Of a stretch of DNA of 64,000 nt, positions 12,860 to 34,756 are shown piece after piece. Location: positions 9,521 through 73,520 of the forward strand of contig CAYTAR010000002.1 of NCBI GenBank assembly GCA_964436015.1, written 5' to 3'. The notes beneath the pieces are model-generated. The model had not been told where the DNA came from. It saw nothing but the letters and a program-made list of their open reading frames with translations, and ran no database searches. Both the position numbers and the translations under genes were made by a program. The stretch is from an uncultured Candidatus Saccharibacteria bacterium (GTDB lineage Bacteria > Patescibacteriota > Minisyncoccia > Phycocordibacterales > GCA-2401445). Position 1 is the first letter of the stretch; each line of letters starts with the position of its first letter.

Positions 12860-14578
12860 CTAAATAACACCAGTACTCGCGGCGGCATCAATGTCAATAA
12901 CGCGACGTACCTCCTTCAAAGTAGTTACCCCTTGAAGAACTTTTACCGCAGCGTCTTGTTCCATAGTAAGAATACCTTGTTTGAGTGCTGCTGCGCGAAT
13001 TTCTCGTTCACTCGGGTTTTCTCGTACAATCTTTTCAATTTCCTCATCCATTAGAATCGCTTCGTACACTCCCACACGTCCTTTGTATGCCAAATGTTCA
13101 GATTCAAGGTCTTCTTTTTCTTTCCATATTGTTTGTGTTTGAATATTAGCCAAGTCCGGACGGTTTGTTATAGTTTTTAATATCAGCGTTAGCACCTCCT
13201 TGTCTTTACCTTCAAGAGGAACTTCAACCGCATTCTCTTTATTAACCTTACGGATAAGGCGTTGTGCCATGGTTGTGGTTACCGCAGAACCAATAACTTT
13301 TGGGTTAATTCCCATATCAATTAAACGGGGGAAGGCACCTGCGGCGGTGTTGGTGTGCAGTGTTGAAAACACTAAGTGACCCGTCAGCGCAGCGTTGATC
13401 GCCATTTCCGCAGTTTCTTTGTCTCTAATTTCTCCAACCATGATAATATCCGGGTCTTGGCGGAGCGCCGCACGGAGACCTGTGGCGAATGTATACTTAT
13501 CTTTTTCAGTTTGTGTTTGAACGATTCCAGGGAGGTGATATTCAATAGGGTCTTCAACGGTCAGGATTTTAATATCTGGTGTGTGCACTTTTCGTAGGAA
13601 TGAGTAGAGTGTAGTTGTTTTACCTGAACCAGTGGGACCAGTGGTAAGTATAAGTCCGTTAGGTCGTTCAATTTCACGCATAAGCACCTCAAAGAGGTGG
13701 GGTTCAATACCGAGAGACTCAATGGTTACTTGAATTGATTTTGGATCCAAGATACGCATCACCACTGATTCGTTGTATGCTCCAGGGAGGGTTGAGGTAC
13801 GAATTTGGATTTCTGAGTCATTTACTTTAATACTGAATCGCCCATCTTGTGCGGAATTTTTTACATTTAACATAACACCAGAGATGAGTTTAATACGAGA
13901 AAGGACGAGTCGATAGGTATTGTTATCAATATGCACAATTTCTGTGAGTACACCATCCAGTCGGTAACGAAGACGGACATACTCTTCTTCCGGTTCAAGG
14001 TGGATGTCTGACGCTTTGAGCGCAAGCGCACCCGCAATTATCATTTCAAACACTTTTGATATTTTGTAGCCCTTTTTTGCCTGTATCACATCAGTAACAC
14101 GGGTAGTAATATCAGCAATAGAAGAAACCTCATTGATCATTGCTCCAATCTCATCATTTGCAATATCAAGAACACCTTCTTTACTCTCAACGGTAAGTGA
14201 AATGTCGGCGTACCTACCCCATGCTCGCTCCAAGCTCTGCTCTGACGCAACAAACATGAGTACTTCAAACCCTTTTCGTTCCAAGTCCGCCTTAACCTCT
14301 TTTAATTTTTCGTTGCTAGGATCCTCCGTTGCAATACCTATTTTCCTTCCAATAAGACTGAATGGAGAAAAGCGGTTTTCTCGCGCCACTTTTTCAGGAA
14401 CTGCACGAAGCGCATCTCCATTAATGGACATTTTTGAGAGGTCTATGTAGGGAATACTGTAGCGGTTTGAAAGTATTTGCGCTAGATCTTCTTGTTCTCG
14501 CGCGCGGAGTTCCGCGAGACGCTTATTTTGCTTTTCATCATCAAATTGAATCATTGAATTATTATACCGTGGAGCCAC
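12860..14578 (-). CDS. pilB: type IV pilus / type II secretion assembly ATPase (PilB/GspE family)
   Basis: N-terminal T2SE_N-like region, Walker A GPTGSGKTTTL, and MVGEIRDKETA. Confidence 0.85.
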   Translation of the reverse strand: MAPRYNNSMIQFDDEKQNKRLAELRAREQEDLAQILSNRYSIPYIDLSKMSINGDALRAVPEKVARENRFSPFSLIGRKIGIATEDPSNEKLKEVKADLERKGFEVLMFVASEQSLERAWGRYADISLTVESKEGVLDIANDEIGAMINEVSSIADITTRVTDVIQAKKGYKISKVFEMIIAGALALKASDIHLEPEEEYVRLRYRLDGVLTEIVHIDNNTYRLVLSRIKLISGVMLNVKNSAQDGRFSIKVNDSEIQIRTSTLPGAYNESVVMRILDPKSIQVTIESLGIEPHLFEVLMREIERPNGLILTTGPTGSGKTTTLYSFLRKVHTPDIKILTVEDPIEYHLPGIVQTQTEKDKYTFATGLRAALRQDPDIIMVGEIRDKETAEMAINAALTGHLVFSTLHTNTAAGAFPRLIDMGINPKVIGSAVTTTMAQRLIRKVNKENAVEVPLEGKDKEVLTLILKTITNRPDLANIQTQTIWKEKEDLESEHLAYKGRVGVYEAILMDEEIEKIVRENPSEREIRAAALKQGILTMEQDAAVKVLQGVTTLKEVRRVIDIDAAASTGVI

Positions 14579-14630
14579 GTAAAGACGAAAAAAGTCTTGT
14601 GTACCAAAGGTTTTTGGAAGGGAGGAGACA

Positions 14631-14659
14631 TTGACATTTATAAAAAAGTATGCTATACT
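14631..14659 (+). promoter_or_regulatory. sigma70-like promoter (TTGACA-17 nt-TATACT)
   Basis: TTGACA at 14631-14636 and TATACT at 14654-14659, upstream of the 14713 CDS. Confidence 0.45.
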
Positions 14660-14712
14660 GTATTTAGGTATGGGTTTGTCAGTTTCCCTTGATAACTGAT
14701 AGAAAGGGCTTT

Positions 14713-15291
14713 ATGAAATTTGTCATTGTGTTGATGATGGGTGTTCTGTTTCTTTTGCCGGTGACGGCGACGGACACAAACCAACTCTCCGCGGTTCAAG
14801 CGGAGATCGCCGAAATGAAGCTCCAAATTCAGCTTGCGAAAGCTGAGTTGGAGCTTGAAAAACTTCGCGCCCAAAAGCAGAAGTTGGTGACTCCGCCGAC
14901 GGTTGTCACCAACGAAATCTCCCCTGTTCAAGCGGAAATTAAGAATCTCAAGGAGCAAGTAGCTCTTGAGAAAGCTCGCACCGAGCTCAAGAAAGTGCAG
15001 GCGCAGAGTCAGCCTGTTCATGCAAAAGTTGCTCAGTTTCCTGAAATTGAGCAACAGCGAGATTTTTATCTCGCTGCCTCAAAGGAGGCGAAGGCGCGTG
15101 CCGATTATTACCGGCACGAAGAGCAGGCGAGTAGGTACGCTCGCCGGGCTCTTGAGGAGCAGATCTCGGGATTCTTCATTGAATCCCCACATCGGAAGTA
15201 CACTATTCCGAATACGCCTTTTAGGGCTTCGTTCCGTAGTGCAAATTACGGATTCACCGCCCGAGGCGGAGTGAAGGTGAATAGCCGATAG
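14713..15291 (+). CDS. secreted coiled-coil protein with two internal repeats
   Basis: Signal peptide MKFVIVLMMGVLFLLPVTA. Repeats are SAVQAEIAEMKLQIQLAKAELELEKLRAQ and SPVQAEIKNLKEQVALEKARTELKKVQAQ. I prefer the ATG at 14713 over the track start at 14689. Confidence 0.6.
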   Translation: MKFVIVLMMGVLFLLPVTATDTNQLSAVQAEIAEMKLQIQLAKAELELEKLRAQKQKLVTPPTVVTNEISPVQAEIKNLKEQVALEKARTELKKVQAQSQPVHAKVAQFPEIEQQRDFYLAASKEAKARADYYRHEEQASRYARRALEEQISGFFIESPHRKYTIPNTPFRASFRSANYGFTARGGVKVNSR

Positions 15292-15306
15292 AGCAACCCA
15301 CACATA

Positions 15307-15332
15307 AACCAGCGCTACGCGCTGGTTTTTTT
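15307..15332 (+). terminator. intrinsic terminator
   Basis: AACCAGCGC-TAC-GCGCTGGTT followed by a T-run. Confidence 0.7.
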
Positions 15333-33318: not shown

Positions 33319-33319
33319 T

Positions 33320-33868
33320 ATGCTAAATTTTCTCCCCGCAGAAGAGCGAAAGAGGATAAAAGGAGTGTACAGGATGCAACTTGCAGTTGTGGCGTTGGTC
33401 TTTTTGTTTATTACCATACTTATTGCAACCGCATTTCTTATTCCTGCTGATGTGTTAATGAAGTCACGCGTAGCGGTTGTAGAGCAGAGAATTCAAGACG
33501 TAAGTATTAAAGTTTCAGAACATGATGGTGTTACGCCCGAGGCACAGCTTGCGGATATCAAGGTGAAAATGAATACGTTAAAAAATATTTCAACCATGAC
33601 ATACCCAAGTACTGACATGCTTGATATTCTCAGTGCCAAACCGCAAGGGGTGCGTATGGAACGAATTTCTTACGATGGAAAAGAAGGGAAGCGCGTATTT
33701 AGAATTACCGGAGTGAGTAATACGCGGGAAGCTCTGCGGGAGTTTGAGAGTGGGATACGGGGTGTCTCTTGGGTAGGTACAGTGGTACTTCCTATAGAGT
33801 ATTTAGCGAAAGAGCGTAATTTGGATTTTTCAATAACCGTTGAGGGGCGTAGTGAACCAACAGAATAA
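33320..33868 (+). CDS. pilN: PilN-like pilus assembly protein
   Basis: MLNFLPAEERK followed by a single TM helix. Position after pilM. Confidence 0.65.
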   Translation: MLNFLPAEERKRIKGVYRMQLAVVALVFLFITILIATAFLIPADVLMKSRVAVVEQRIQDVSIKVSEHDGVTPEAQLADIKVKMNTLKNISTMTYPSTDMLDILSAKPQGVRMERISYDGKEGKRVFRITGVSNTREALREFESGIRGVSWVGTVVLPIEYLAKERNLDFSITVEGRSEPTE

Positions 33869-33873
33869 CGTAT

Positions 33874-34437
33874 ATGCACGGATTTAGCAGTATAAAAAAA
33901 GCACTTCTCATTCTCGGAATACTCAATGTGGTTGCGGGTGGTTTTTATGTTTATTTTATATTTTCAATTCAAGGAAAAAAGGCGTATGTGGATGAGCAGT
34001 CGGTTGTGGTACAAGAGCAAATTACTGAACGTACAAATTTGGCACTTATTCAGACTATTTTACGTGAACGAGAATCGGATCAGGAAAAGATAGATCGCCA
34101 ATTTATTGATGCAGGTAAAGAGGTTGATTTTGCGATTGCACTCGAGTCTCTTGGAAAGAGAAGCAATATTGCATATGAGCATGAATTACGTACCGTTGAT
34201 CCAAGCGTGAGTGACCCAAAGAATAAAACTCCGTATACTTTTCTGCATGTTACCGTAAAAACTGAAGGCACGTGGAGTAATACGGTCCAGTTTCTTTCCT
34301 TGGTTGAGTCATATGAACGGTATATCACCGTTGATTCATTTGAATTAGGGTATGGGGAGACAGGGTTAAGTGATTCAAGTGGACCACGGTTGTGGAGGGG
34401 AGTGTTTGTTTTCTCTGCATTAGTAGAACGAAAATAG
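33874..34437 (+). CDS. PilO-like pilus assembly protein
   Basis: N-terminal TM helix, a coiled segment, and a C-terminal ferredoxin-like pattern VTVKTEGTWSNTVQFLSLVESYERYITVDSFEL. Confidence 0.5.
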   Translation: MHGFSSIKKALLILGILNVVAGGFYVYFIFSIQGKKAYVDEQSVVVQEQITERTNLALIQTILRERESDQEKIDRQFIDAGKEVDFAIALESLGKRSNIAYEHELRTVDPSVSDPKNKTPYTFLHVTVKTEGTWSNTVQFLSLVESYERYITVDSFELGYGETGLSDSSGPRLWRGVFVFSALVERK

Positions 34438-34438
34438 T

Positions 34439-34756
34439 ATGAAAATATCTCTCACACGATTTAAAAATAGCCTACGTTCTCCACGAACTTTGAATGGTAT
34501 TAATCCTGATCGGGATTGGAGAATTATGTTGTTTGTATTTATTGCTTTTAATGCATTTGTCATGGTCCTCAATATTAACTATTATCAAGAAATAAATTTA
34601 AAGGAGGATTTTTTCCAGCCCGAAAATACGACACCGGTACGAACTCCTCTAAATGTTGCGGCTCTTGAAACCATGACTGCATCAATTCAAGAACGAACCA
34701 TTCGATACTCTGGTTTAATTAGACAACCGATTGTAAGTGTTGACCCTTCTTACTAA
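34439..34756 (+). CDS. small single-pass membrane protein (pilus operon member?)
   Basis: 105 aa with TM helix WRIMLFVFIAFNAFVMVL. Starts 2 nt after the preceding gene. Confidence 0.45.
   Translation: MKISLTRFKNSLRSPRTLNGINPDRDWRIMLFVFIAFNAFVMVLNINYYQEINLKEDFFQPENTTPVRTPLNVAALETMTASIQERTIRYSGLIRQPIVSVDPSY

Follow-up and report, generated by a model that had tools for sequence, protein, structure and literature searches.

A 64,000-nucleotide stretch of contig CAYTAR010000002.1 (assembly GCA_964436015.1), from an uncultured Candidatus Saccharibacteria bacterium and referred to here as the window, encodes type IV pilus proteins at two separate loci: a solitary pilB and, 17.6 kb away, a pilMNO operon. 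We consider it likely that these are real motor and scaffold genes of a type IV pilus, that their arrangement is ordinary both for type IVa pili and for this lineage, and that the rest of the machine is encoded outside the window. PilC, a prepilin peptidase, pilins, and any PilT would then be found in the other 76 kb of the 140,670-bp contig or elsewhere in the genome. In bacteria of the candidate phyla radiation (CPR), host attachment and DNA uptake are believed to depend centrally on type IV pili, and, by analogy, the pilus predicted here would serve one or both of these functions. The pilus proteins of the window are new, divergent members of known families.

The pilB gene encodes the extension ATPase. 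Its open reading frame (ORF) spans positions 12860-14578 on the minus strand, and the deposited protein, an exact match of 564 aa, begins at the ATG at 14554, placing the gene at 12860-14554. Pfam searches detected a T2SSE domain (PF00437; E 2.6e-108) preceded by an MshEN/T2SSE_N domain (PF05157; E 1.2e-10). The top NCBIfam model was that of PilB (TIGR02538), which was matched over its full length with 443.2 bits, compared with 419.8 bits for GspE and 183.6 bits for PilT. Both the length of the protein and its N-terminal MshEN domain are those of PilB-type ATPases (approximately 560 aa) rather than of PilT (approximately 350 aa). The closest solved relative is Geobacter PilB (E 9.7e-96; alignment over residues 21-553), and Myxococcus PilB and Thermus PilF were also matched. 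All of the ATPase motifs are intact: Walker A GPTGSGKT (residue 306), the Asp box VEDP (residue 333), Walker B DPDI (residue 367), and the His box HTN (residue 400).

The second locus consists of pilM (32206-33318; 370 aa), pilN (33320-33868; 182 aa), a pilO-like gene (33874-34437; 187 aa), and a fourth gene (34439-34756) whose 105-aa product spans the membrane once and belongs to no known family. A preliminary description of this DNA had proposed that these genes form an operon about 18 kb from pilB; all four lie on the plus strand, and the gaps between them are only 1 to 5 bp, which confirms this proposal. PilM, the actin-like cytoplasmic protein of the assembly subcomplex, passes both of its family models (PF11104, E 1.6e-35 and 123.1 bits where 27 is required; TIGR01175, 135.6 bits where 133 is required) and matches Myxococcus PilM in the structure 3JC8 with an E value of 2.7e-21. 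Upstream of pilM, on the same strand, Pfam searches identified ruvX (30804-31229), a gene with a tRNA-binding domain (31216-31539), and a VTT/DedA membrane protein gene (31547-32149), all of which may belong to the same transcription unit. On the 3' side, the fourth gene is followed by a tRNA-Arg(TCT) (34781-34853, plus strand) and a strong hairpin terminator with a 16-bp stem (34856-34892, plus strand) that closes the unit.

The preliminary description regarded the PilN and PilO assignments as open to being overturned by searches with hidden Markov models (HMMs). Both assignments survived. The window PilN scored 16.4 bits against PF05137, below the gathering score of 22.8, and a profile search started from it retrieved 388 relatives, of which 79 of the 120 scanned matched PF05137 (E ≤ 0.01; best 2.2e-6); several of these relatives carry the name PilN from NCBI or JGI. 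The protein begins with MLNFLPAEERKR, which contains the motif MLNFLP and is followed by one transmembrane helix. Among 120 relatives this region has the consensus MINLIPxEEKK, in which N3 never varies and P6 almost never does. The N terminus of PilN is known to be bound by PilM (Pelicic 2019), and MLNFLP is the apparent counterpart of this conserved PilM-binding peptide. Profiles of PilN, the PilO-like protein, and the fourth protein gave only insignificant matches to the sequences of PDB entries (E 0.5-1.1 for PilN and 0.3-0.4 for PilO), and a comparison of folds was therefore needed for PilN and PilO. The AlphaFold2 model of PilN (pLDDT 79.5) runs from a transmembrane helix through a long helix to a C-terminal ferredoxin-like domain with a beta-beta-alpha-beta-beta order at residues 111-176. 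Its top Foldseek matches were PilO (2RJZ and 5UVR), PulM (5HL8), EpsL (2W7V), and PilN (4BHQ), with probabilities of 0.99-1.0 but E values of only 1e-3 to 5e-2. Family membership, the N-terminal motif, and the predicted fold together argue that the PilN call stands.

For the PilO-like protein, HMMs alone gave no confirmation, and the predicted fold and the position of the gene are the two grounds on which we keep the call. The AlphaFold2 model (pLDDT 81.5) is composed of a transmembrane helix, a coiled-coil helix, and a ferredoxin-like domain. PilO of Pseudomonas aeruginosa (2RJZ) was the best Foldseek match (E 8.5e-5; probability 1.0), followed by Amuc_1100 and Myxococcus PilO; chain O of 3JC8 was matched with an E value of 1.6e-4, and 5UVR with a TM-score (target) of 0.68. 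As for position, in canonical CPR pil clusters the HMM of the window PilN family matches the gene that immediately follows pilM, and the HMM of the PilO family matches the third gene. These clusters also carry PilB, PilC, PilT, and prepilins, labels that Pfam (T2SSF and N_methyl) confirmed in one cluster. The window contains no second copy of pilN or pilO detectable with the family profiles.

The fourth ORF is a real gene. Its product has a conserved PxRDW just before the single transmembrane helix and a conserved C-terminal DPS[LIY], and the gene is kept in position at six fetched loci (L001, 3506-3829; L002, 7117-7473; L005, 12161-12475; L006, 3724-4038; L007, 11101-11415; L089, 11098-11415). 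It matched no Pfam or NCBIfam model, and phmmer recovered only 11 representatives. Other CPR pil clusters also encode a small transmembrane protein (70-115 aa) after pilO; of the 13 inspected, 10 terminate in G[RK]xNPF, an ending that recalls the C-terminal RD(MILF)N(FYW)FS motif described for monoderm PilN (Pelicic 2019). The profile of the fourth protein did not match these small post-pilO genes, neither kind has a Pfam family, and any homology between the DPS and NPF types would be hypothetical. The fourth protein might conceivably be a new, lineage-specific subunit of the PilMNO complex that replaces the G[RK]xNPF-type protein of other CPR clusters. Purifying selection acts on all four genes of the operon: for pilM, pilN, and the pilO-like gene, the ratio of nonsynonymous to synonymous change (pN/pS) is 0.11-0.30, with synonymous sites saturated, and for the fourth gene the corresponding ratio (dN/dS) is approximately 0.21 relative to its closest relative, at L006.

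PilB had been described as solitary, and we agree, because its neighbors are ruvB, a gap without ORFs, a divergent coiled-coil ORF, and polA. ruvB (11438-12466, minus strand; identified with Pfam) is not a pilus gene and lies downstream on the same strand, and the 393 bp between it and pilB hold no credible ORF. On the upstream side are a divergent ORF of 200 aa (14689-15291, plus strand) and then polA, which, like dnaA, dnaN, and yidC, was recognized by eye from its translation. The divergent ORF encodes a secreted or membrane coiled-coil protein of no known family. It is flanked by a near-consensus promoter-like site (14631-14659; 11/12 matches) and a strong terminator (15306-15328), and the protein collection lacks an entry identical to it from this start. 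We rejected it as a candidate pilus gene; it has no PilN or PilO profile match and no prepilin motif. We also looked for adjacency of pilB and ruvB in relatives. The "RuvB-like" genes (511-550 aa) beside PilB at L012, L013, and L032 have, by eye, DnaX-like N termini, and the match at L038 comes from a high-GC, non-CPR locus; the lead was dropped.

The separation of the two loci had been taken to fit dispersed pilus genes reported for CPR genomes. This comparison is not well founded, because both the CPR literature and our own sample show clustering. Pilus components lie together in many CPR genomes (Meheust et al. 2019), and in Nanosynbacter lyticus TM7x, which has two PilB paralogs and pilins at four loci (locus 2 carrying recAX), the machinery genes are clustered. 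A PilC-like gene was present within 8 kb of PilB in 38 of 51 evaluable metagenome PilB loci; 10 of the 51 had no partner, and in 2 of these 10 (L010 and L046) PilB is at a contig end. A better description of the split is that it follows the classical type IVa layout, in which pilMNO has a locus of its own. Scattered assembly genes belonged to the definition of type IVa pili as first given, and PilMNO is specific to this class (Pelicic 2019). The same neighborhood also recurs in relatives: ruvX, the tRNA-binding gene, and often the VTT/DedA gene precede pilM, pilN, pilO, and the small gene on six contigs (L001, L003, L005, L006, L007, and L089, the last from GCA_026395995.1), among them contigs of 359 kb (L007) and 287 kb. 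RluA and ribosomal protein L19 genes follow the operon on L005 and L007, as they do in the window, and no PilB, PilC, or PilT was found within 10 kb on the two long contigs. Relatives of the pilus proteins bear labels such as Candidatus Nomurabacteria, Paceibacterota, Minisyncoccia, "Patescibacteria group," and "uncultured Candidatus Saccharibacteria," which marks the organism as an ultra-small CPR/Patescibacteria bacterium that probably stands near the Paceibacteria. The ruvX-pilMNO neighborhood is thus fixed in the lineage, and the two-locus layout is a stable feature rather than a sign of decay.

Recombination genes stand beside both loci, and this could mean that the same machine is dedicated to DNA uptake, as a short competence pilus acting with ComEC and neither adhesive nor capable of twitching. 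ruvC and ruvB (10418-12466) are directly downstream of pilB, ruvX is just 5' of pilMNO in a linkage to pilM that is conserved in relatives, and ruvA (22367-22969) lies between the two loci. The lack of PilT in the window would suit such a pilus, CPR papers tie PilB, PilC, PilM, and PilO to ComEC-based uptake, and the recAX at TM7x locus 2 offers a parallel. However, the ruv adjacency could be a coincidence, given how small and gene-dense the genome is and how close the replication origin lies, the description of PilMNO as specific to type IVa (Pelicic 2019) gives no pointer to a Com-type pseudopilus, and the window contains no ComEC, ComEA, or DprA. We regard dedication to DNA uptake as possible but rather doubtful.

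To return to the type IV pilus machine as a whole, its remaining components were sought across the window. A six-frame regular expression for the class III leader returned two loose matches over the 64 kb, neither with a K/R-G leader and both in frames on the strand opposite adjacent long ORFs. Searches with tblastn used 141 queries from CPR-type pil clusters (62 prepilins, 56 PilC-like, 15 PilT-like, and 8 PilD-like proteins) and found nothing credible in the window beyond PilB itself. One "PilC" match with a low E value (5e-4) falls on a Cys/Met-metabolism enzyme gene of the pyridoxal phosphate (PLP)-dependent type and was discarded as the probable product of a mislabeled query. Pfam scans of nearly all other ORFs in the window detected no T2SSF, Peptidase_A24, or N_methyl domain and no second T2SSE. 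The full set expected of a type IVa machine, a T2SSF platform together with an A24 peptidase and an N_methyl prepilin, is therefore not present within the 64 kb. The regular expression and the prepilin queries bear out the preliminary statement that no ORF here has a class III signal peptide. Its broader claim, that the window lacks any pilin, PilC, or PilT, holds for PilC and PilT but, where pilins are concerned, only for those of type IV.

Several of our observations weigh against a standard type IV pilus machine. No PilC, PilD, pilin, or PilT was seen in the 64 kb, so that only part of the machine is documented. For the PilO-like protein, neither it nor any of its 70 relatives matched the Pfam PilO family (PF04350); the only Pfam match in the family was T2SSM_b (E 0.0028), in 2 of the 70. 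PilB falls short of the TIGR02538 equivalog cut-off of 675.65 bits, which marks it as a divergent member, and its best relatives retrieved from metagenome contigs are only 34-39% identical to it, many of them from high-GC, non-CPR organisms. Moreover, PilB contains no cysteine at all and so lacks the tetracysteine CxxC...CxxC zinc motif that is present in 70 of the 77 homologs retrieved; each position is replaced, with VNKEN...DLESEH in the window protein where Geobacter PilB has VCSEC...GCVKCN. The seven homologs without the motif are all located in pil clusters or adjoin PilC, and cysteine-poor, motif-less PilBs occur within the complete pil clusters L024, L026, and L042. Because such proteins are found inside pil clusters, the missing zinc motif does not disqualify the window PilB.

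These peculiarities of PilB could also indicate that two systems are present, with PilB acting in some other type II/IV-like export and PilMNO served by a second ATPase encoded elsewhere, an arrangement for which the distance between the loci, their unrelated neighbors, and the two PilB paralogs of TM7x might be cited. Yet the window has a single T2SSE gene, the match to PilB-type ATPases is full length and includes the N-terminal domain, motif-less PilBs occur in the three complete clusters just named, and keeping pilB apart from pilMNO is usual among type IVa pili (Pelicic 2019). We consider two systems unlikely.

The absence of partner genes from the 64 kb could be read in two further ways. 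PilC, a prepilin peptidase, and type IV prepilins might really be missing from the genome, so that PilB, PilMNO, and the small PxRDW...DPS protein would form a reduced or repurposed machine; this seems to us very unlikely, but if it were true, the machine might have a noncanonical substrate or work with the Sec-dependent fiber cluster at 48-64 kb. Alternatively, the genes could be remnants of a machine that has otherwise been lost, as the absence of PilC, PilD, and pilins from the window might suggest. The five ORFs are intact, however, as are the catalytic motifs, the operon is under purifying selection, and it has been retained in many genomes, with 388 proteins of the PilN family and 70 of the PilO family recovered, which makes decay highly improbable.

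The cluster at 48-64 kb encodes surface proteins, and it had been left open whether these are linked to the pilus. Among its products are a helix-turn-helix protein with a single transmembrane helix, an Ig-like domain protein of 646 aa, and a protein of 2,073 aa (50444-56665). Three paralogs (56674-57690, 338 aa; 57680-59365, 561 aa; and 62075-63289, 404 aa) each carry a signal peptide and, in addition, an Ig-like part that weakly matches WxLIP_PGBD and a transmembrane segment that starts at residues 274-325; their sequences weakly match that of EfmWxLIP1 in the PDB (E 0.006). An ARAGORN "tRNA-Pyl (cta)" at 57968-58043 on the minus strand, inside the 57680-59365 coding region, was not confirmed by Rfam and is probably a false positive. 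Two further Sec-dependent paralogs of approximately 380 aa (59565-60704 and 60943-62094) have weak matches to NF058581, CPR_Pam_pilin_C (18.8 bits, E 1.4e-3, and 20.4 bits, E 4.3e-4, respectively). All of the Pam- and WxL-type matches are far below their cut-offs (18.8-20.4 bits against 55 and 14.9-20.2 bits against 27.3). The two approximately 380-aa proteins are identical over their last 199 residues (60105-60701 and 61495-62091), with DNA that is 98-100% identical over at least 300 nt, and have differing N-terminal halves, for an overall identity of 77%. This pattern suggests either recent gene conversion or a variable N-terminal domain carried on a constant assembly domain. The C terminus of the 2,073-aa protein carries a version of this C-terminal domain, at 29% identity. 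The "AALTNFSDTL" N termini of the two approximately 380-aa paralogs, which may resemble SipW/TasA-type signal motifs, matched no TasA or camelysin model. Searches of PDB sequences with the cluster proteins found either nothing or only WxLIP at the E value given above, and tblastn found no relative of these proteins in any of the 89 fetched loci.

A 2026 preprint describes the Pam pili of a CPR bacterium as Sec-dependent fibers built by donor-strand exchange with membrane-anchored chaperones and no dedicated trans-envelope machine; reports of Pam pilins come mainly from Saccharimonadia and Microgenomatia, and WxL clusters of Firmicutes have a similar makeup. As in the Pam pili of Ca. Mycosynbacter amalyticus and in WxL clusters, the components here all appear to be Sec-dependent. 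The three membrane-anchored Ig-like paralogs resemble, in topology, which is all that was compared, the anchored PamC and PamD chaperones or WxLIP, and the giant protein that shares a C-terminal domain with small ones recalls the "large WxL protein." From its sequences, the cluster may be a Pam-like or WxL/WxLIP-like fiber or adhesin system. Because its proteins carry Sec-type signal peptides and its components are WxLIP- or Pam-like, it is more likely an independent surface system than a partner of PilB and PilMNO. The converse, that PilB and PilMNO assemble or energize this fiber instead of a type IV pilus, might be argued from the presence of both in one window with no type IV pilin in sight. 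We judge it extremely improbable: the cluster proteins have Sec-type N termini and no class III leader, their weak similarities point to WxLIP and Pam pilins, and the cluster is 13 kb from pilMNO, with unrelated genes between.

The type IV pilus genes of the window can be placed among known systems. With the diderm type IVa pili of P. aeruginosa, Neisseria, and Myxococcus (3JC8) they share PilB, PilM together with the N-terminal peptide motif of PilN, the build of PilN and PilO (each a transmembrane helix, a coiled coil, and a ferredoxin-like domain), and a pilMNO operon apart from pilB. Unlike in diderms, pilO is followed not by PilP and PilQ but by the 105-aa single-pass protein, PilB lacks the tetracysteine motif, and an outer membrane is not expected in this organism. 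The single-membrane machine with PilM, PilN, and PilO and without a secretin is like that of monoderm type IVa pili, such as those of Streptococcus sanguinis and Clostridia (Pelicic 2019). In S. sanguinis, however, PilO far exceeds PilN in size and the genes are clustered (Pelicic 2019), whereas in the window the two are equally large (182 aa for PilN and 187 aa for PilO), a feature of diderms. The component families are those of CPR clusters (Saccharibacteria TM7x, TM7i, and others), in which the order pilM, pilN, pilO, small transmembrane gene is common. The CPR clusters that we fetched are contiguous, containing pilB, pilT, pilC, pilD, pilMNO, and pilins, whereas in the window pilB stands alone and pilMNO lies among housekeeping genes; the small protein also differs, ending in DPS[LIY] rather than G[RK]xNPF. 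There is likeness, too, to GspL and GspM of type II secretion systems. The ferredoxin-like domains of the PilN- and PilO-like proteins match PulM, PulL, EpsL, and XcpY in Foldseek searches, and weak T2SSM_b and T2SSL Pfam matches exist. Unlike in type II secretion, PilM here is a protein of its own and satisfies the PilM model, and no other component of such a system is present.

By analogy with homologous systems, PilM would form a cytoplasmic ring that clamps the N-terminal MLNFLP peptide of PilN, and PilN and PilO would pair outside the membrane through their coiled coils and ferredoxin-like domains. This scaffold would hold the PilC platform, and a PilB hexamer would turn the platform by ATP hydrolysis, lifting processed pilins from the membrane into the fiber. 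Physical interactions among PilM, PilN, PilO, and PilB are accordingly those expected from homologs.

The window as a whole has a GC content of 42% and begins near the replication origin, with rnpA, yidC, and jag beside dnaA (3169-4515) and dnaN (4755-5855). The proteins of this region are identical in every residue to singleton clusters that derive from one NCBI contig of 140,670 bp. An S-adenosylmethionine (SAM; S-box) riboswitch (28250-28349, minus strand; Rfam, 64.1 bits) lies upstream of the gene for the Cys/Met-metabolism PLP enzyme (26991-28175). A perfect direct repeat of 300 bp (42137-42436 and 42510-42809; 100% identical, the starts 373 bp apart) begins within the 3' end of a tRNA-His (42070-42144) and could be an attachment-site duplication left by integration or an assembly artifact.

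PilB, PilC, PilM, and PilO have been reported to be common in Patescibacteria, with PilC, PilM, and PilO most frequent in the 0.1-µm fraction, where Paceibacteria are enriched. To the picture of CPR type IV pili in host attachment and DNA uptake the present case adds little: it is one more lineage with a standard motor and scaffold in the scattered layout of type IVa pili. If the 48-64 kb cluster proves to be of the Pam or WxL type, it may extend these newly described surface systems to another CPR group. From the cysteine-free PilB it is evident that some CPR lineages can dispense with the zinc motif. In this Nomurabacteria/Paceibacteria-like group, pilMNO is fixed beside ruvX and is always accompanied by an unnamed fourth gene, which annotation pipelines miss, as they do PilO.

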